NCBI GenBank assembly: GCA_964016885.1
Contig: OZ024743.1
Span: 22,258,001 to 22,322,000 of the forward strand
Direction of reading: 5' to 3'
Length of the DNA stretch: 64,000 nucleotides
DNA from: Eledone cirrhosa
Lineage: Eukaryota
Shown here: positions 2,725 to 50,779 of the stretch, piece by piece
Position numbering within the stretch: the stretch's first letter is position 1
Layout: every line of letters starts with the position of its first letter
Made by a program: the position numbers and the translations under genes
The notes under the pieces: model-generated
What the model was told of the DNA's origin: nothing
What the model saw: the letters and a program-made list of their open reading frames with translations, nothing else
Database searches by the model: none

Positions 2725-5700
2725 CTACAGGCTGATATAGAGAGATGGCCCATTCACTCGGGCCATTCTCGCTACTTTCACCCATCTTTCATAAAACTTG
2801 CTGGGGTAGAGCACCTCTCTCTCCATTCTGATCCTTCTTCTAAAGTGGTACTTGAAAAAAAAGACCAGTTGTTGGCCGGAGAGAAAGGTGTCTGACCTCA
2901 GCCATGTCAACCTTGTCCACCATACAACTTCTTTCGCCATGGCTATCACACAGAGGAAAACCGCCTCTCCTTCGTTTTTGAAAGGGGAGGCGGTTTGATC
3001 GTGACAATGTTCTCGGTGGTCAACCGGATTGGTCCCACCCGCGACAGTAGTCGTTCCACATAGCCCCACAGGTCAGCAACGCCCGGGCAGTGTACGAATG
3101 CGTGTGCGACGGTTTCCTCGCCACGCACGCATCTCGGACAGATCTTCTTCGAGGGGTCCCTACCCGGGCGCCCGTGTCTGTAGAGCTTGTCCCGAACGGG
3201 TAGAGCTCCTCGGTAACATTGCCAAGCCAGGGACTTTTGGAAGTTGTCCATCGGTCCCGGGCCAAACGTCCTACCGAACAGACTGGCCAGCTCGTCTTCC
3301 TCCATGCCCAGAGCCTCTCCGAGAGCGTCGTCGCACTTACTGCGCACCAACCCTCTATAGAATGTTGAGGTTGAGTCTCCACTGATTGCCGGATCCGCTT
3401 GCCAGAGGGCCGTGAGCGCCTGGGCACATTCAATGTGCCAGTCGCCCACTTTTCCCGGTCTTTGCTTGACCCAGGTTTGCAGCTCGGTGAGTGAGACGAG
3501 TCTCGGAAAGGCTCGCCTCACAAACAGGGCCCACACCGGCTGACCGGTGAGGAATACCTGGAGGTGCCGTAGCCTTAATGCGTGTCTATGCATCGTCAGC
3601 CACGGCATCCCCAGTCCTCCGTTCGAAGGGTGTTGACAGCAGATGGATCTTCTCACCAAAGGAGCCCGCTTCTTCCAAAGAAATCGGAAGAGCGCGCGCT
3701 CCATTTTGGCGAGTGTTTTCTCTGGGCAAGGCACGACGGTCAAGCGGTAGTAGATGACGGACGCTATATAAGCGTTCGCCACCTCCGCTCGACCTTTCAG
3801 GGATAGTTTGCACTCGGCTCACTTCTGGGCGAGTGCAAACACCTTGCCCGTTACCTCGTCCCAGTTTTTCTCCACCTGGAGGTCCGGTCCGAACCAGAAC
3901 CCGAGCAGCTTCACCGGTCCCTCCGTCCAGCGTCCGACGATGCCGTCGGAGGGCATCGTTTTTCACCTCCACGTCCCGAGTTGCAAACCGACGGACTTGT
4001 CCAGGTTCAGCTTGGCTCCTGTAAACCTTTCATATTCCACCAGTAAGGTGGCGATCTGCCCGATTTCCGAGGCGCACGACACCTTTACTGTCACGTCATC
4101 GGCGTAGGCCGACACCGCTTTCCGCAATCCCGGTTCCAAGGGGATGCCCTGCAACAGCTCCAGCTTCCGCAGTAGTGGCTCGAGAGGCAGCACATACAGG
4201 AGGGAGGAGAGAGGGCATCACTGTCGGATGGATCGCGTGATTTGGAACGGCTCCGAGAGGTAGCCGTTCACCTTGACCCTCGAGCAGTTGTTGCTGCTGT
4301 GCATTGCAGCAATCCAGCCCCTGAAAACGGGTCCGAAGCCTGCTGCCGCGAACACCGAATCCAGGTACCGATGGTCAACCCTATCGAACGCCTTAGATTG
4401 ATCCAAGTTGATCAGGGCCCCACCAAAGCCGGGTTCGTTCCCTACCCTCTCTACGATGTATCGCATGAGGTAGAGGTTGTCGTGTATGGACCTGGACGGG
4501 ATTGCGCATGTCTGCGCTTCTCCCACCAGGTTCCCGACGACAAGCGCCAATCTCTTCGCTAACACCTTGGCCAAAATCTTTAACTCTGTGTTTAGCAGAG
4601 TTATGGGCCTGAAGTTATCTATGTCATCCCCCTTGTTCTCGTCCTTCCTCACCAGCGTGACTACGCCCTTGGTCACAGAACTGGGAATTCTCCCGTTCTG
4701 TTGCCAGTTGCAGTAGACCGCCTCGAGGAGACCGGAGAACAAGCCCGGCATCGCTACATAAAGTTCGTATGGTAGACCATCGAGACCCGGAGATTTGCGT
4801 TTGCCGCATTGGCTCAGCGCTTCCCCTATTTCAGCGGCTGAAATCGGCCTCTCGCAGGACTTCGCCTCCCTGTCCGAGAGCCGCGCCAGACCGTCGAGGT
4901 ATTGATCGAAATCCATGGCTCCACCCGGCCCGCCGCCCCTCCCGAACAGTCGTGCAAAGCGCCGTTGAAAGGCCGCGCTCATCCACTCAGGTTCAAGGAT
5001 CACGCGTCCATCCTGGTCCTTCAAAGACCGAATCGTGGACTTGTTTCCACTTTTTGCCTCTGTCACTCAGGCCCAGCTAACAGCTTTGGCTCCCTCGTTA
5101 CCCAGAGCACGTATTTTACTCCTGAAAACGCAGCCCTCGTACTTCGCATCAAAGAACTGGTCTAGGGCCGTTCTTGACGCCAGCACGCCGGCCACGTTGC
5201 TACTCCTAATCGCCTCTTCTACTCTATTTGTTAATTCCCTTTCAGTTCTATTCCTATCTGATGCTAATTCCCGACTAAAACCTATCGATTCTATTCTAAT
5301 TTCTCTCTTGAGAGAGCCCCACCACCTGCTGTTGACAATTGCCCCCGTCAACGCTGCTTAACTAGTGTGCTAATCCGCTACTGTAAGCTTTGTTTGTCGG
5401 TAAAGACAAGTTTAGCTTCCAGTAACCGTGTCCCTGTCTATGAGTTCTATCAAGGTTGACCACTCCGGTCACCAACTTGTGATCCGAATAGTCAACCATG
5501 AACATTCGTGGACAGCTTAATATGTCCTTATCCTTTTTTCTAACTAGGAACCTATCTAGATACGACCTAGATGTTCCGCTGCGATTACTCCACGTCCACC
5601 GTGGCACAGTCGGAAAATCTAGTCGATAATTATCGGCCAGATCAAATCGGCCGATTAATCGTTTGAGGCTGTTACACCCCCCCCCCCCCCCTCTATCGGG

Positions 5701-6168
5701 AAATGCCCCTACATAGTCCCAACGTGCATCCAGGATACCATTCCAGTCCCTCACTAAAAGCAAGGAGCGAGACGTTCCCAGGAAATTCTCCAGGCGTCGG
5801 AAGATGTCTGGTCGCGGTGTCGCAGATGGGGCATACGCTGCCACCAGCCTGAAAGCTCCACCTTCACCACTGCCCACGTCTAAAACCACCAGTCGACCCT
5901 CCGGGTCCAGGTGTAGCTTCTGTGTGGCAAGACCCAGGTATTTTCGCAGCAGAACGATAACCCCTCCCCCACCCCTCGGCTGACAGTGAGATGCGTAGAT
6001 CTCAAAGTCGTCGAAGATGGGGGCCAGTTGGCGCTCGCTGCTGATCCTGGACTCGCAAATAACCATTACATCTACTCTGTGCGACCTGAGGTCATTTAAG
6101 AGTTTGCCTTGTTTCCAGGACATCCCCAAGCCGCGTGCATTCATACATCCAACTCTTATATTGGCCAT
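2725..6168 (-). pseudogene. L1/Tx1 ORF2 (APE endonuclease, reverse transcriptase, CCHC-type C-terminus) with several stops and frameshifts
   Basis: APE motifs NARG, YAPS, DWN, SYLDRF and SDH (5362-6168). RT motifs KSPGLDG, NFRPITLLNTELKILAKVLAKRL, LDQSKAFDRVDH, RQ*CPLS (G changed to stop at 4218) and YADD. C-terminal CPRC...ETVAHAFVHC. Confidence 0.93.
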
Positions 6169-6210
6169 GTTGGTGCTGAAGAATTAAAAAGGATGAGGAA
6201 AGGAAATTAC

Positions 6211-7983
6211 TTACCTCTTCGTCTCCTGGGGACCAGGCTGCACAATTTCCATGGGGGTGTTGGAAGGGTTGTTTGGTGGGGTTGTGGTTTGTGGTGGGGT
6301 GAGGACATCAGTGTGTGGTGGGATTAGGGTGTTTGGTGGGGTGTGGGGATGGGGAAACATCTCAATAGGACGCTGTTATGTGGTTTGGTGCAGTTGGTCC
6401 CCACATGCATTGGATGGTTCTTTTTCAAAGTTACATAGGTTTCCGTTGGGACCCTATTCATCATTAGGTGCGGTTTGTTCGCTGCGTAGGTGAAAGTGAT
6501 CCCTTCGGTTTCCACCGAAGGGTTATTTTCTATCGCTTTCATCAACGTTTTATTGTTCTTGTTAATGTATGTATAGAGTTTTTGTTGTGTTGTGTTTGTT
6601 TTTGTTTGTTGTTCTTGTGCGTGTTTTCGTTTTGTAGTACGTGTTATGTTTTGGGGAGGGGTGGGTTTTTTTATTTGTGATGTTTGTTCTGTTTGTGCTG
6701 GTGGTTGTGTGTTTGTGGCAGTGGCATTTTTGTTAATGTGGTGCCTTTTTTTTTTCCTTTTCACCTGTTGAAAGGGTTCTCCCTCGTCGTCACTGGGTGA
6801 CGTTGATACGTAGTCCTCTTCCGTGTTGTTGGGGAGGGGTATATTTTGGGGTTTTGTTGTGGTTGCTTTTGTATTTGTTTTAGGTGGGGAGGGGTTGGGT
6901 GGAACAGTGTTTTGTGCTGTTATTTTTCCGTGTTGTTGTGGTTGTTGTTGTTGTGGTGGTGGTGGTGGTTGTGTTGTTGTGTTCGGGGTTGGCAGAAGAG
7001 CCATTTTTTTTACTCGTTAATTGAGGACAGGCAGCCCTCAAGTGACCCCTGCTTAAGCAGTGGTAACATGACGACCGCCTTCCCTCCACTGAAATGTTTA
7101 TAGAAGTTAGCCCGTCCAGAGGCACGCGTTGTGGGATATTCGCTATTCATTCTGGGCTCATTTGCACCAGAACTTCTACGCTGGTCCCACCAAATACACC
7201 TCCGGAGGACTTTCCTATTGAAATTATCTTGTCTTCGTCAAAGTCAATGATTCCACATAGTATCCACCAAATGTTTACATTTGGTGTGATACTCATGATT
7301 TTTATTCTTTGTGTCCTTTTTCCCCTGTATGTGGGGAAAAAGGTGAAGCGTGGGGACACAATGGGTGATACCGAGTACTTTTGTGCTGTTGACTGGTTGT
7401 TTATTAGCACCGAAATGCTACCAAACAGTTTACCTTTTTGTATGAAGGTTAAGTCCTTCATTGCATCTTTTAGAACCAGCTCAATTTCATTTTGTGATAA
7501 TTGAGCTGGTTTTCTTGTTTCGTTCGATATTGTCCTGAAAACCACAGTCTACGTAATTCCTGTGGAGAATTGATGCTAAAAGCACCGTTTTCGCCAAAAG
7601 TCACGAATTGTTTTGCGTCTTGTAATAGTTGTTTAGCATTTGTTATGTCTATTGGCGTGTATAGTTCGTTTTTTTTTTACAGTCTGTGCGAATGTTGTTT
7701 TGGTGTTGTTGTCTTTTTTGTTGCTGTCACTGTTGGTAATATTGTTCATGTTTTCCTTGGTGTTGCTATTGTTGCAGTTGTTGGTTGTGGTGTTATTGTC
7801 ATTGTTCTTATTGTTGGTGCTCGTGTTATTTACTGGGTTTGGTTTCGTGGTTTCAATATTTTCAACCTTTTTCGATAATGCGAGGGGGGAAGGCTGCAAG
7901 CTTTGTACTCCTACCTTCCCTCCACCACTTTTCTTAGTGGGCGTGGCACTCACAACAGTGTGCGAGGTGGAAATGGCATCCAT
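6211..7983 (-). pseudogene. L1/Tx1 ORF1 (gag-like, zinc knuckle), frameshifted
   Basis: ORF pieces 7633-8079, 7147-7545, 6880-7125 (CYHCLSRGHLRAAC = CX2CX4HX4C) and 6324-7004 (P/T/Q-rich). Frameshifts fall at poly-T runs, and the pieces lie directly upstream of ORF2. Confidence 0.75.
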
Positions 7984-8185
7984 TGCCACCAAGTCTACAC
8001 AGTTTTGAAAATGAAAATGAAAATTTCGCCCCAGAAAGGGGCGAAAATTAGTTGACTCAACGTCTGACAGCCCAGGCAAGGAGTTAAACTAAACAATGTT
8101 ATTAAATTGAGCAATAAACTCACAGTTTTTTTGACAATAATCCGTAAAAATCCGGAGCAAAGTAATTCACGTCTATATCAAGTGT

Positions 8186-9797: not shown

Positions 9798-9979
9798 TTA
9801 AGGGTACTATTTATGGTTATGTATGCAATAAAACCTTTAATGGTAATATATTATATATACAAACCCTAAATAGTGAGAGATAGTCATTAATTACTATCCT
9901 ATTACCAGTAAGATAAATAGCTCAATGTAATAACATCAGTTGTTTTACAGAGCAGTTATATATATATATATATATATAT

Positions 9980-11890
9980 ATTAATAACAATATATTAGTT
10001 AATGGGAATAACAATAATAATAGTTTAAACATGAATAATAGTAGAACACCTTTAAATAATAATGGAAATAGTATAACGTCTGTAAATAACACTGAGAAGA
10101 TATGTAATTGTAAAAAGAGGTCTGAATGTCCTTTACAAAATAATTGCCTTGACAAAAATCTAGTATATAAATGTACCATTAAGGCAACAAATTATATATA
10201 TAACTACATAGGTGCCACCTCATCTAAATTTAAGGAACGTTGGTATAACCATAGACATACTTTTAAAAGACCAGATAAGAAATTTTCAACTTCACTTTCG
10301 CAATTAGTGTGATCTTTAAAGGGCAATAATATTAAATACGCTATCTCTTGGAGGAAATTAAAGATGCTACTTCCTATCAGAAATTTGCAATCTTTGTAAC
10401 CAAGAGATTCTACAGATAATTACAAACTATGACAATTTAATCAACAACAAAAAAAATTAATTATTTAGCAGTTGTCACCATAAAATTGGTAAAACTTTCC
10501 AGGCAATGTACCAGTTTCGAAAAAATTATGACAATTAATAATTTAAATATATATAAATTTTGCCTTATTGAAGTAATAATTTATTGATATTTATATGTAT
10601 CGGAATAATTTCATTAAGAGTCTCTTTATCCTATGATTTGATTAGGACAGTTCAATATTCAATTAGACATCAATTATGATATATACAATTGATGATTTAT
10701 GACTTTTGAATTATCGCTGGACGTGAGAGTAGAGATGAGTTATAAATGCCTCTATATGGTGAATGAGTTATCTTCCTTTTGTTTGCATTATCCGTAAAAA
10801 TTTCTTTTTGACTAGCTTGTTAAAACATATTAAATATGAAATATGAAGATTAATAATATATAGACTATCATTAAAAGGAAACTATATATCAAAATAAGTA
10901 AATACAGAAGTAAATATAACCATTCATTAAATAAATGAAAAATTATAGAGAGTAAATATAACTACAGTTTGATTCTAGGAAATAAATGAAAATTAAGGAA
11001 TAGTAAAGCTTTTATAAAGCGAATCTCTAAATTAAAATAAATTAATTTGAGTATATGTATTGTTGATGATATATGCATGGTATTATATTTTAATAATTAT
11101 TTAAATACACTTGAAAGATTAATTCTTTTAAAGTTGTAACAAAATATTAATAGAATATCTTACCTTAAAATTAAAAATGATAATAATCTTTAATGAGCTA
11201 AATTAAATTATATAAATTTATAATTAACTTAAATATGTGATTGCTATAGAAAGTAATCTATACTGAATAATTTAGATATAATATAAAAGTATAATTAGCT
11301 AAAACATAATCAAATCCAAGCGATATTCATTGATATATGTGAATAGATTTGATTTCTTATTTTATCTAGCATTTGAAAACAATGGTTTTATTTATATTCC
11401 CCTCTATTTAGTTTTTTCTTCTTCCTTTTCTTTGTTTTTCTTTATCCCCCTTCGTTTCCTTTTACTCTCCTCACATCTTTCCTCTCTTTTGTCTTTATTC
11501 CTCTTTTCTTTTTATATATTTCTTTTCTTCTTTTATTCATTCATCCATTTATTTTTTTATTCATTTTATTCATTATTTATTTATGTATTTATTTATTTCT
11601 TGCCTTTTCCTCTTTTTTTGCACCCCCTCTTATATCTCTAATTTGCTCCACGTCCTTTTCTTCTTTAAGTTTATCATATTATTTGTGGTATAAAAATTTT
11701 GTGATTTGATGAAATAAATTACTGCCAATACTGGAATTGAATAATCAAGACTGTAGCGGTATGTCATATATCAAATCATATATTTTGTCTGATGAAAACA
11801 TACTTAAACAACATAGTACCTTTGAAATATATATAATAAAGTATATATTTTGATTATGTGAATATTTTTCATTTGTTAACATTTTGAATA
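9980..11890 (+). mobile_element. Penelope-like element 3' part: GIY-YIG endonuclease, long 3' UTR and pLTR with HHR
   Basis: ORF 10031-10312 reads CNCKKRSECP...CLDKNLVYKCTI...YIGAT...FKERWYNH...STSLS, the GIY-YIG domain with its Cys motif. It continues decayed to about 10490. HHR at 11778-11846. Confidence 0.8.
11778..11846 (+). ncRNA. Minimal type I hammerhead ribozyme
   Basis: Stem I ATATATTTTGT/ATAAAGTATAT (11 bp including G:U). CTGATGA 11789-11795. Stem II AAA..TACT/AGTA..TTT. GAAA 11824-11827. Palindromic stem III ATATATAT. AUA cleavage triplet. Confidence 0.75.
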
Positions 11891-13931: not shown

Positions 13932-14314
13932 TATATATTGGTAAACGGAATAGAAAATGCTGACAAATTGTTCACAGTTGAAAAATGGTTTAATTAGGAA
14001 TAAAAGAGTATTAGTAATTGTATGGGTTAGTATTCAGTTGTGGTTTTAAGTTTTTAAGTTTTTACCGGTTGCGCATTTCTAAATGCTTTTCAAAAATAAT
14101 TTTGAGATAGAGCGTCCGTGATGTTTGCTCAGATCAGAGCAAACATCACGGACGCTCTATCTCAAAATTATTTTTGAAAAGCATTAGAAATGCGCAACCG
14201 GTAAAATTTAAAACTAAAACTGAATACTAACCAATACTATTACTAATTCTCACTTATTCCTAATTAAACTATTTTTCACTGTGAACAATTTGTCAGCATT
14301 TTCTATTCCGTTTA

Positions 14315-17439: not shown

Positions 17440-18741
17440 CAGGGTGGGGCATAATTCCTGTTACAAAGTTTTAAATCAATTTAAAAATACATTATGTTGC
17501 TAATATAACTAATATATATGTATCAAATCCACGCACTATAACCATATTAACTATTTTTCGAAAATTACTCCATTAACTATTTGCAATGTCCATAGAATTG
17601 AAAAGAAAGTTCATAAAGAGAAGCATGAAAAAGGCCTGACTCCACCCGAGATATTTAAACTGGAGAAAATTCTTAAGATCAATAGAATGTTGATCAAAAG
17701 GAGAATTAATCGATTTAAGGACACTTCCACACCCAAAGACAGACCTCAATCCGGACACCCTCGCACCTCAAGAACACCAAAACTTGTTAAAAGTGTGAGG
17801 GAAAAAATAAGGCGTAATCCAAGAAGGTCCATGAGAAAAATGGCAGAAGAAGCAGAAACATCGCCGAGAACTATACGGAGGATATGTCGAGATGATCTGG
17901 GTATGTCACCCTATAAGTTCCAAAAGAGGCAGCTTCTTTCTGCAGCCACAATTGAAAATAGGCTCTCGAGAAGTAAACTGTTATTGGACCGTATCAAGGA
18001 TGGCATGCTGCAAAACATGACCTTTACAGATGAGAAGTTATTCACTGTGCAGCAGTCTCACAACCATCAAAATGATCGAGTACTTGCAAAAAGTCTCAAA
18101 TCAATTCCTTCAAGTGTAGGAAAAGTGTTCAGAACAGGGAAACCAGCATCAGTAATGGCTTGGGCAGCCATTTCTGAAAGAAGGAAGTCTCCTCTGATTT
18201 TTGTTCCTCAAGAAGTTAAAATTAACAAAGAACTTTGCATAAAGGATATTTTGGAAGGAGCACTGATGCCATGGTGCATATCTCTTTATGGCGATGACAT
18301 TTGGACTCTCCAACAAGATGGAGCGACGAACCACACTGCTTGCGTAACACAACAATGGTGTAGAGACCATTGTCCTGCATGGATCAGTAAGGAAGAGTGG
18401 CCTCCGACATCACCAGATCTCAACCCTCTCGATTTTTCCTTATGGTCAATTCTTGAGAGTGAAGCCTGCTCTACTCCTAGCCAAAATATTGAAACTCTAA
18501 AATCAAAACTGAATAAAGTATGGGAGAAAATACCCATGGAAACTGTTCGTGCAGCCATCGAAGACTTTCCAACACGTCTTCGAGCAGTAGTGAGAGCTAG
18601 GTGAAAGCATTTCGAATACATTTTTGGGCAGTTGTTTAATAGTATATTACTTACTATTTGTTGAAGTCAGATCTTGAAATAAATGTTTTTTTCAAGAACT
18701 ATTTGCATTTTATTTTGTAACAGCTTTTGTGCCCCACCCTG
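17440..18741 (+). mobile_element. Tc1/mariner DNA transposon, DD37D (maT) family, 1302 bp
   Basis: 27-bp TIRs CAGGGTGGGGCATAATTCCTGTTACAA (17440-17466) and 18715-18741, with 4 mismatches. Flanked by TA inside (TA)n. Confidence 0.93.
17586..18604 (+). pseudogene. DD37D transposase, nearly intact
   Basis: Motifs SGHPR, FTDEK, QQDGA and WPPTSPDLNPLDF, with 37 residues between D2 and D3 by count. The likely ATG at 17586 is out of frame with 17687 (1-bp loss near 17617). TGA at 18602 replaces a G of the usual GGHFE end. Confidence 0.88.
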
Positions 18742-18911: not shown

Positions 18912-19079
18912 CATACGCACATATATATATATATATATAATTTAGATATTACTAATCATACAATTCTTTTATCTTTAGGTAGGTCTCTATTGCTCAGCTC
19001 TTGTTCTCTGATACATATAGCACGCTTACCACAATCATCTGACTGAATATATTTATTCATACATAGATATACATACATA

Positions 19080-19119
<40 letters not shown>

Positions 19120-19356
19120 TATTTAGAAACACACAGATACATGCGGACACACACATATATACATGAATGCATCCGCACCCAACTGTGAGTTAAGGGTGCC
19201 AACTTCACAGATGTTGCTCAATGAATGACTGGGACAGACCAATTCAGTTTGAACCAGACTGAACCAGTATCAGAGTTAAAAATACATTATGAAGAGAGAA
19301 GAAACATTTAGATATAATTAGTAATAAAATGTATCATACCTAAACTGTTCCTAAAT

Positions 19357-19444
19357 TCCTCGACTACGTAGTTTCGTGGCATAAACAAAAACAATATATC
19401 AAAGATATAGAGTCCTTGCGAGGTCTGCCGACTTATCAAGAGGA
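19357..19444 (-). ncRNA. Type I hammerhead ribozyme, U3-A8 core variant with branched stem II
   Basis: Minus strand reads TCCTC-TTGATAA-GT(C)GGCA...TGCCAC-GAAA-CTACGTAG-TC^GAGGA. Confidence 0.8.
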
Positions 19445-19670
19445 TACCTCATTTTACTAGTCTCAAGAACGCGTCTACACGACGTGAGAAAGAATCCCAA
19501 AAGGCGGAGGGGGAGATAGTCACGCGATATAACGGTCGAGAAACAGAGCTAAGCCTCTTATAACCACGAAGAAAATACCACGGAGGCGGAGGGGGTATTC
19601 ATATCGAGGCCGTAGAAGAGGTAGTGAAGAAGGCGAGAAGTATGAGTAATGGAAGCTTTCCAGTTGTCCC

Positions 19671-19706
<36 letters not shown>

Positions 19707-19732
19707 CATATTTCATCAACCATAATAATACA

Positions 19733-19796
<64 letters not shown>

Positions 19797-19800
<4 letters not shown>

Positions 19801-42560: not shown

Positions 42561-43716
42561 CTCTCGCACACATACACACATAAACACGCACTCGTTCTTT
42601 CTAGATGTGAACTGTACTATTGCCATTTACACTCTACAGTCGACATAGTTTAAATATTACAGCTATGAACTGATCACTATTTCCAACACAAAATGTTTGT
42701 CACTCATTCCGTTAGTTCCGAAATATTCTTGTTTAAGAATCCTACAACACCACAGGTCTAGCTCAATAATATTTATTTATTTTATTTTTTAGAGTCCACC
42801 TATCAATTTACTCGTAACGTCAAATGTTGTCCTTGTTATTATTACTATTATCAGTAAGCTCCTCCAATCTTATCTATTCGTTCACTTCTATTGACGATGG
42901 ATTGTATACAGGTTTGCACGTGGCTTAATAACAACACCAACAACTCAAAAATAAAAGGAGAAAGTGCTCGGTGATTCTAGTATAAAGTTAATTTATTTCG
43001 TTCATCATCATCGACATTCTTCATGATTACTATTATGACTATTATATTTAATTATAATGTAGTATAGTTGTTCTTCTGTCGCTCATTTTTCTTACGTACG
43101 TTTTTATAACTTTATTATTATTTTTTTTCATTTTTGTTACTTTTTTAAGATAGGAAATGATAGTTCCATGTTCTCTGTATTTATGCGTTATCCATTCTTA
43201 GTAAACATAAATTCCATCTTATAAATAAATCCATCATTATTCCAGTTATGAAGGTCGTTAGATCCAAGCAATAACAGTTGTCGTTTCCACTATAAACTCA
43301 GTTATCAATGTTATTACATTCTACATATTATCACACCTACTGTTTACACTGTTCCACTTGTATTTCTCTCTACCTTTCTTTTTTTTTTTGCTGATTCGCT
43401 CCTAATTTTCTTCTGAAAGTATCAACATTAATTATTATTATTTCAAACCTCCACTTATTTCACCCCCCCCCCCCACATCCAACCTCCCTGCTTTTTATAC
43501 TGACCAAATTTAAAATTGACCAAATAATTTTTTTAAAAGTGCCAAAAACAAAAACAACAAACAAAAATGCTGCAAAAACAATAACAAATCTTACTGACCA
43601 AAGAAACAAAACTGCTACCGATTCAACTTCACCTAATTGTACCGCCGGAATTCCAGGCTGCTACTATATAAAACACTCGACTTTAGAACAGTGTACAAGG
43701 CTTCCATTGCATCGGT

Positions 43717-44499
43717 ATGTCAAACCTTCACTACCCCTATCGTTTCTCTGGACTTCAGTTGGTTGACTCTATACCAAACGAAGATGAGAAACTACTTCAC
43801 CAAAACGATGACGGTACGTCTGAAAAAGAGGAATATGAACGTATAGAAAAATGGCTCGATTCGCACCCACATTTTTGCCACAATTATTTTATACGGAAAG
43901 CTCAAAGACACACGGTTGATGAATGGCTTTATCAACAATCGGAGAGTTCTTGGAATGCTGGTCAGTCCGAAAACCCTTCAGGTTCCAGATCTAACTCAGG
44001 AGCTAACACACCGGTAAGAAAAATTTCTACGCAGGAATTGGATCGAGGTAATTTATTAAATCCCATGGTTTCTACAGTTGACGGAACTCCTACTTTTCTA
44101 GCTCCTCTCTGTAATACGAATCAATCTGTTTCTCAACCACAAAATAAACCAAAACTTCGGAGACGTTCTAGAAGTGAACTTCAGGCGTTAGACGAAAAAG
44201 AACTCATGTATGAATTAGTCAAAGACACATCTGAAGAACTCGATGTAACTTGTCTCTGTTTTAAGATTCTTCAGAACGTTTGTATTCTACTTAACGCGGA
44301 CTGTTGTTCTCTTTTCCTTGTTCAATATAACTATGCAGGTGAGAAAATGTTAGTTTCTAAACTCTTCGACGTCAGTTCAATCAGTAGCTATGAAGCTTGT
44401 CTAAACAACATGGAAGAGATTCACATAGAATGGGGAACAGGGATTATAGGATACGTTGCCAAGACCGGGGAACCTCTTAATATTCCGGATGCTTATCAG
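43717..44499 (+). CDS. First coding exon of a GAF-domain cyclic nucleotide phosphodiesterase (PDE5/PDE11-type)
   Basis: Non-repetitive 261-codon frame with EKWLDSHP.FCHNYFIRKA, SGANTPVRKIS and the GAF-A N-half (LNADCCSLFLV, LVSKLFDV, WGTGIIGYVAKTGEPLNIPDAYQ). Phase-0 donor CAG|GTATGT at 44499/44500. Orthology (PDE5 vs PDE11) cannot be resolved from this exon. Confidence 0.93.
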
Positions 44500-44779
44500 G
44501 TATGTTGTAATTTGTTTTTGTTATTTTGACGTTATTCTTTTTTCAAAATATGTTATGCTATTCAATACAAGTTTACAGATCCACATTAATAGTTTATGAT
44601 AACTGCTGTTATTTTACTAAAACTATATGTAACAGACGACAGTGATTTTGTAAAACTACACAAGAGACTAGTATTTAAAATATCATCCAGACGATCACTA
44701 AATATCAGACATCGGATGAGAAAGTTCACAACAAATCAAGTGAAGAAGTTCAACAGATACATGTTTATTGAGTGACACA

Positions 44780-50713: not shown

Positions 50714-50779
50714 TATTTTGTCTGAGGAAGGCATAGCATATTGTTAATATGATATCCCTGAAATATATATAATGAAATA
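50714..50779 (+). ncRNA. Minimal type I hammerhead ribozyme
   Basis: TATTTTGT-CTGAGGA-stem II AGGCATAGCATATT GTT AATATGATATCCCT-GAAA-TATATA-TA^ATGAAATA. Confidence 0.75.

Follow-up and report, generated by a model that had tools for sequence, protein, structure and literature searches.

The hammerhead motif at positions 19357-19444 of the window (by which we mean the whole 64,000-nt stretch of Eledone cirrhosa DNA analysed here) is, to judge from its genomic copies, one unit of a young, high-copy, non-coding, retrozyme-like element with a repeat unit of 591 nt. For its U3-A8 hammerhead, cleavage by a dimer of two strands is predicted, and a Neptune-type Penelope enzyme is likely to copy the element by reverse transcription into TA microsatellites. 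The copies, read as DNA, show most of the features that define non-LTR retrozymes, and we propose that they represent a new family of such elements, with a ribozyme of the type found in Penelope-like elements (PLEs) and a PLE insertion footprint. The ribozyme swap alone is already known, and the value of the observation lies in the element. No earlier description of the 591-nt family was found in the literature searched, a scope that left outside most subscription papers and Repbase; related families could still appear in the supplements of PMC4209133 or of a 2026 preprint (bioRxiv 10.64898/2026.07.22.740005), which were beyond that search.

A U3-A8 hammerhead of type I layout

The minus strand from 19444 to 19357, read from its letters, has the layout of a type I hammerhead with stem I open. 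Its features, and the evidence for each, are as follows.

19446-19450, minus strand: GAGGU just 5' of stem I, candidate pseudoknot strand that could alternatively form a hairpin with stem I (inferred)
19440-19444, minus strand: stem I, 5' strand TCCTC (direct reading; one U-A to U-G to C-G series in older subfamilies)
19433-19439, minus strand: core UUGAUAA, with U3 at 19439 and A8 at 19434 (direct reading)
19426-19432, minus strand: stem II, 5' strand, with a bulged C at 19430 (93.0% of cells paired in a 27-row alignment)
19420-19424, minus strand: ACCUC within the internal loop of stem II, candidate for pseudoknot pairing with GAGGU (inferred)
19385-19419, minus strand: long interrupted hairpin extending stem II, with 8 bp, a 2x2 loop, 6 bp and a 3-nt loop (folding and alignment)
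19376-19381, minus strand: stem II, 3' strand (direct reading and alignment)
19363-19372, minus strand: 10-nt palindrome ACTACGTAGT replacing helix III, predicted two-strand pairing site (duplex -12.9 kcal/mol, no hairpin alone)
19361-19362, minus strand: predicted cleavage site, after C17 at 19362 (direct reading and genomic 5' ends)
19357-19361, minus strand: stem I, 3' strand GAGGA (direct reading)

The initial annotation had described stem I as TCCTC/GAGGA, the core as UUGAUAA and the cleavage triplet as GUC, and all of these were recovered in the same places, as was the predicted cut between 19362 and 19361. GAA occupies 19375-19373, and the palindrome at 19372-19363, perfect over its 10 nt, opens with the last A of GAAA. 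Stem II had been given six pairs enclosing about 44 nt. The enclosed length is exactly 44 nt and the six pairs are present, but they can be formed only with the one bulged C.

No hammerhead was found among the 150 listed of the 154 Rfam matches to the whole window, and a scan of the local 521 nt at E<=10 returned three matches, none of them a hammerhead. This miss is expected because of the U3-A8 core and the 44-nt insert. Searches for CUGANGA overlook the motif, as had been anticipated, and so do the standard Rfam models. Two other hammerheads in the window, at 11779-11845 (+) and 50714-50779 (+), are minimal, have a canonical core and belong to an older, abundant PLE family.

U3-A8 had been read as a compensatory double change of the 3-8 pair, to be taken as private decay if other copies carried CUGAUGA. 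The 3-8 pair of the hammerhead is present as U3-A8 in 26 of 27 aligned family rows, and the core is UUGAUAA in 99 of the first 100 genome matches listed. We looked at genome copies with an altered base in a fixed flanking context: where U3 was replaced (14 copies) A8 was kept in all 14, where A8 was replaced (another 14) U3 was kept in all, and CUGAUGA occurred in 0 of the 28. Private decay is refuted by these counts, and the compensatory pair is the state of the whole family.

The scarcity of core variants within the family was considered as a sign of selection and dropped, since position 7, which is free to vary, has 12 variants as against 14 and 14 at positions 3 and 8; low within-family counts reflect youth and not selection. 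Older subfamilies, 70-87% identical to the unit, were therefore of interest for the longer time scale. They were retrieved via a tail motif, and an old consensus was taken as the majority sequence of 12 of their loci. The ribozyme frame of the young unit departs from this consensus at 1 of 44 positions, compared with 116 of 498 in the rest of the unit (p=1e-4), and each of 453 windows of 44 nt taken from outside the frame had at least three differences. Over this longer time the ribozyme frame appears to have been conserved as if under selection.

Neither the U3-A8 swap nor the palindromic helix III is new, both being in print for PLEs. Natural U3-A8 covariation in hammerheads has been published (PMC3088659), and about 1,300 U3-A8 PLE hammerheads are reported from Schistosoma (PMC4209133). 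At least three further U3-A8 hammerheads occur elsewhere in the Eledone cirrhosa genome. Unrelated U3-A8 hammerheads lie at L149:2205 (+) and L155:500 (+); the latter belongs to a short tandem unit and has a stem I of 7 bp and a palindrome of 12 nt.

The 591-nt repeat family and its insertions

Genome copies were counted by sequence-pattern matching. A 16-nt piece of the motif matches the 3.0-Gb genome exactly at 8,023 places, and its reversed control at none; the whole core together with the palindrome is kept at 7,276 places. Neighbouring matches were either in tandem, 590-595 nt apart, or faced away from each other. The repeat unit is 591 nt long, with 42% GC and no long ORF in six frames, and as a circle it folds with z = -7.1 relative to 40 shuffles. 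A tandem arm can contain as many as four full units (L083, L084), with a complete hammerhead in each of them, and the head-to-tail junctions are identical in subfamilies about 25% apart. The unit was numbered such that q1 is the first base 3' of the predicted cut. The window copy itself is less than one unit long, and its ribozyme region is the commonest family variant. Its parts and flanks are listed below.

19116-19674, minus strand: window copy, 5'-truncated, about 559 nt, q279-591 followed by q1-246 (blastn of the unit against the window, 99-100% identity)
19277-19287, minus strand: proximal fixed end, q80 (about 19282), internal in the window copy (58 of 111 arms end there)
19116-19281, minus strand: 166-nt tail between the fixed ends; the window copy stops at about q246, the distal fixed end (q243-253 is the end of 50 of 111 arms)
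19047-19122, no strand: (TA)n target, 3' side (flank reading)
19674-19799, no strand: (TA)n target, 5' side (flank reading)

The (TA)n flanks obscure any target-site duplication. A second retrozyme-like family is seen at L165:8068-9553 (+), in tandem units of 480-510 nt that each carry a canonical-core hammerhead and a 6-nt palindrome.

For the anatomy of the insertions we scored 73 of them by hand, drawn from the first 53 Mb of C1 (by ribozyme or tail motif), the window and loci found in the searches for variants of bases 3, 8 and 7. Copies below about 85% identity, nested or complex loci, loci cut by an edge and duplicates were left out. The set comprised 38 inverted (head-to-head) and 35 single-armed insertions. 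All but three of the 111 arms end at q72-83 or q243-253, so that the two fixed ends lie 80 nt and about 246 nt 3' of the cut site. Among inverted insertions with two standard ends, 34 of 35 had one proximal and one distal end (p=1e-9), and the remaining one had two distal ends. Pairs that appear proximal-proximal were seen at a locus excluded from the set (L218, with arms 87% and 99% identical to the unit) and at three older loci (L056/57, L074 and L196); most of the remaining older loci again have one end of each kind. Standard 3' ends run into TA repeats in nearly every arm displayed, a tendency not counted against a null. A simple fold-back origin of the inverted pairs was considered and argued against, the lengths of the two arms being uncorrelated (rho 0.18, p=0.30).

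Partial tandems with an inverted, 5'-truncated arm and a tail at one end only are the published layout of PLEs (PMC8557442), and the 591-nt insertions have this layout, as a non-autonomous PLE derivative should. The PLE tail has been described as the stretch that separates two internal sites at which reverse transcription starts, with both target strands extended in vitro by a protein predicted to be a dimer (PMC11167929). In those experiments start sites did not differ between the two strands, but the arms of the 591-nt family almost always use different ones; the rule of one end of each kind is therefore an added constraint.

Penelope-like elements as the candidate driver

PLEs have been called candidate drivers of animal retrozymes (PMC7229834). 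A search for GIY-YIG domains led us to PLE loci in the genome, of which 80 were examined out of many thousands of candidates. A young family represented at L155:4809-7622 (-), and also at L156, L160, L163, L164 and L166, has a 938-codon frame with reverse transcriptase and GIY-YIG domains and a CxxC-type linker, in copies about 98% alike. We call it Neptune-type from the linker, without a tree; such linkers mark the Neptune and Nematis clades (PMC8557442). It carries a short U3-A8 hammerhead of its own with a 6-nt palindrome. Its two ends are about 67 nt apart, at 76 and about 143 nt past the cut, and both run into (TA)n. The distance from cut to proximal end is alike in the two elements (76 nt, and 80 nt in the 591-nt unit).

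No sequence link between the unit and an autonomous element was found, the sole strong match in the 80 PLE loci being a copy of the 591-nt element itself. Likeness of the tail to that of the Neptune-type family was not significant, since 78-108 of 300 shuffles did as well. Two ends are also present in a second young PLE family, this one with a canonical core, so no single driver is established. The window contains, at 9917-10312 (+), a GIY-YIG fragment of the older, abundant PLE family with canonical minimal hammerheads; this family was considered as a relative of the unit and set aside, as no link to the unit was seen. A protein search with the fragment gave no matches, and Pfam gave none for a 413-residue frame of that family.

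Possible traces of cutting and the nature of the template

We found 19 genome copies with a 5' junction exactly at the predicted bond and 4 at the control (p=0.001), which was a single site 58 nt upstream searched with a slightly looser pattern. In the hand-scored set, which was not selected for junctions, 3 of 111 arms start at q1-2 compared with 0.4 expected (p=0.007), and in one insertion (L231) both arms start at q1. These junctions suggest cutting at the predicted bond, with the resulting linear RNAs serving as some of the templates. Of 108 arms, 50 exceed 620 nt and run across an intact cut site, which means that their templates were either religated or uncut. Ten of the 108 arms, including the window copy, stop short of a full turn by no more than 40 nt, a weak excess (p=0.017 against an exponential null, p=0.20 against a uniform one) in an interval chosen post hoc.

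Variants shared within an insertion bear on whether its units came from a single template. At L083 (G000:C1:50594800-50601200) six units in two arms are 0-2 nt apart from each other and 8-11 from other loci. At 25 of 102 loci rare variants were common to all overlapping units, giving 38 such variants compared with 138 in single units. On the ribozyme strand the shared ones include 13 A>G and 6 T>C changes (p=0.008 by composition), and the single-unit ones 11 A>G and 27 T>C. Seven of the 13 shared A>G changes come from two loci; counted per insertion, the figures are 8 and 6, and the excess weakens. On the ribozyme strand, the six full units of L083 have seven A>G differences from the reference unit in common, of which four are rare, and this locus resembles an A-to-I edited RNA that became fixed in DNA. 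The shared A>G changes could reflect editing of the RNA before it was copied or, alternatively, enzyme error. At two pairs of adjacent tandem units (G000:C5:39920689/39921286 and C19:18237720/18238311) both units have the same broken core position 8. These insertions needed no intact core in cis, which is consistent with cutting by a partner core or with copying of a mutated monomer.

The same element with the same PLE driver could also have been copied from an uncut or partly cut linear multimer, with no circle and with the ribozyme only trimming some 5' ends, an explanation that we regard as unlikely. The 50 long arms with an intact cut site would fit it, as would long arms that run from q1 past a second ribozyme (L223, L229 and L237), the expected product of a multimer whose only cut lies upstream. 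An array may also be homogeneous because its parent was, and the main in vitro substrate of the PLE was unprocessed RNA (PMC11167929); in that work ribozyme cleavage was dispensable and no reads ended at the cut. Among retrozyme dimers, cleavage is reported for 1 of 9 (bioRxiv 10.64898/2026.07.22.740005). A homogeneous parent, however, must itself derive from one monomer, and both the single A>G cluster in all six L083 units across both arms and the weak excess of arms stopping just before a full turn speak against a linear multimer.

Far less probable is that an undetected autonomous PLE is the source, with its terminal repeat or 3' stub amplified locally into a minisatellite that does not move by itself. 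PLE copies are usually 5'-truncated, an origin of this kind has been proposed for retrozymes (bioRxiv 10.64898/2026.07.22.740005), and the PLE loci examined are few among the candidates. Against this, the head-to-tail junctions are unchanged across the divergent subfamilies and 0 arms of the 73-insertion set run into coding sequence. The arrays are moreover short, dispersed and fixed at their ends in (TA)n, which unequal crossover would not give.

Stem II and predicted pairing between two strands

The 44-nt insert had been drawn as a multibranched domain with two small hairpins, CCU/AGG and UAUAUC/GAUAUA. This structure was not recovered. The pair probability of CCU/AGG is 0.00 in the window copy, and only 48% of cells pair in an alignment of 27 family members picked by hand. 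A single long interrupted hairpin has pair probabilities of 0.97-0.99 in the window copy, and its 14 pairs are formed in 92.8% of cells over the 27 rows. In the window copy the branched fold lies 9.4 kcal/mol above the long hairpin, and it is the worse of the two in 27 of 27 rows. UAUAUC/GAUAUA is real, as the tip of the long hairpin, but CCU/AGG is unsupported. Changes in the hairpin comprise six one-sided (A-U/G-U or C-G/U-G) and one two-sided. Alignment of genomic copies for covariation, as the initial annotation had recommended, gave three pairs with a two-sided change over the 27 rows, but 71 of 500 shuffles reach that number; covariation support is overall modest.

The insert is best modelled as one long hairpin, possibly with a pseudoknot between ACCUC in the stem II internal loop and GAGGU beside stem I. 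None of these 10 positions changed between the old and the young consensus (p=0.07), and a double change is present in one copy. Such a 5-bp pairing of the stem II loop with the flank of stem I would resemble pseudoknot-stabilised hammerheads, among which pseudoknots of this general kind are common (PMC3088659); here it is a candidate and not established.

In folding calculations the active monomer had a probability of 1%. The two-strand active fold, with a helix III of 10 bp, was the cofold minimum at -35.4 kcal/mol, and the palindromes paired at a probability of about 0.68 in a tandem dimer of whole units. The palindrome thus takes the place of a stable helix III, as in dimer hammerheads of the PLE type. 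Folding thus favours the predicted self-cleavage by two strands over that by a monomer. Since the window copy has one ribozyme, it could cut only with a partner strand. That the motif is instead a stand-alone, monomer-active ribozyme with a multibranched accessory domain on stem II is hardly credible: its core, stems and GUC site are intact and both small hairpins can be drawn in the window copy, but the active monomer fold is improbable, the branched fold is energetically worse, CCU/AGG is paired in 48% of the aligned cells, and the motif is one of thousands of repeat copies.

Proposed cycle and relation to known systems

The element is thus best seen as a two-strand-cutting retrozyme carried by a PLE enzyme, and the following cycle would account for its copies. 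Tandem loci would be transcribed, and two palindromes in the RNA would pair so that one core cuts the neighbour's GUC. The released monomers would be ligated, at least in part, into circles. A PLE protein, probably a dimer, would nick both strands of a (TA)n target, and cDNA synthesis would start at two places within one RNA, 80 and about 246 nt past the cut. The cDNAs would run round or off the template, giving tandem arms joined head to head or a single arm as in the window. A fuller reading holds that the copies record a PLE/retrozyme cycle in vivo, in which the hammerhead cuts, a single circular and sometimes A-to-I edited monomer is copied by a PLE dimer from two fixed sites, and the ribozyme is a new pseudoknotted, dimer-only form with a long stem II; we put this combination forward tentatively, at somewhat less than even chance.

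Like metazoan non-LTR retrozymes (PMC7229834; bioRxiv 10.64898/2026.07.22.740005), the unit is non-coding and tandem, with one type I hammerhead per unit and GC below 50%, is strongly self-paired and has thousands of dispersed copies, and PLEs are the proposed driver. At 591 nt it exceeds the approximately 170-400 nt of the retrozymes in PMC7229834 and falls inside the 51-972 nt range of the 2026 preprint. Its hammerhead is of PLE type (U3-A8, palindrome, long stem II), whereas those in PMC7229834 have the canonical loop 1-loop 2 interaction; the preprint also admits minimal hammerheads as retrozymes. About half of the 591-nt insertions are head to head with two fixed ends, a feature absent from the retrozyme descriptions in the available parts of both sources. 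Circles have been shown for coral, mussel and axolotl retrozymes, whereas the 591-nt family is known from DNA copies.

The ribozyme shares U3-A8, a short stem I and a palindrome that predicts dimers with PLE hammerheads, among which are the U3-A8 variant of Schistosoma Cercyon elements and forms with a palindromic helix III, and the bulge in stem II is found in the Drosophila virilis PLE hammerhead (PMC4209133). It is unlike the forms in that paper in its 44-nt stem II extension, its 10-nt palindrome and the lack of an extra base between A9 and G10.1, and it lies in a non-coding repeat rather than in the terminal repeat of a coding element. With endonuclease-positive PLEs of Neptune type (PMC8557442, PMC11167929) the family has in common partial tandems, an inverted 5'-truncated arm, a one-sided tail, AT-rich or (TA)n targets and two internal starts. 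It differs from them in encoding no protein and in its tail of 166 nt, compared with 30-40 nt in published elements and about 67 nt in the Neptune-type family of this genome.

How animal retrozymes move and what the PLE hammerhead does are open questions in the papers cited (PMC7229834, PMC11167929). The 591-nt family is young, abundant and free of coding constraints, and its copies can be counted for evidence on three points: cutting of the RNA in vivo, copying from one monomer, and use of the two start sites by one target strand each. The genome also holds a near-intact Neptune-type frame, so that element and enzyme could be put together directly in the published in vitro assay (PMC11167929).

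Sequencing runs and other features of the window

An exon of a PDE11-like GAF-domain gene lies at 43687-44499 (+), with a GT donor at 44500; its best named relatives are molluscan (55-60% identity). None of the six sequencing runs listed is recorded as RNA. In run X6 a contig leaves the window at this donor and goes on in a frame that matches the next residues of a mussel homologue, so that this run is probably RNA. Depth in X6 was about 115-165 for the unit (main path) and 5-7 for the gene exon. We did not count this as dedicated expression, as DNA carry-over of about 0.02x or intronic read-through could explain it. Run X2 behaves as DNA of the same organism.

Runs X1 and X5, which are labelled as other organisms, each yielded one closed contig (621 or 620 nt) containing the whole unit (L005:1220-1810) at a depth of about 8, and neither run matched a single-copy segment of the window at length. 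These contigs were set aside as evidence of circles. Trace cross-contamination with variants collapsed by assembly fits them, and closed contigs cannot show circles because tandem DNA also gives a wrap-around joint.

The window further contains a broken LINE with endonuclease and reverse transcriptase frames at 2946-7548 (-), a Tc1/mariner-type transposase remnant at 17513-18604 (+) and, at 14084-14183, a near-perfect 100-nt inverted repeat that is probably a MITE-like palindrome.
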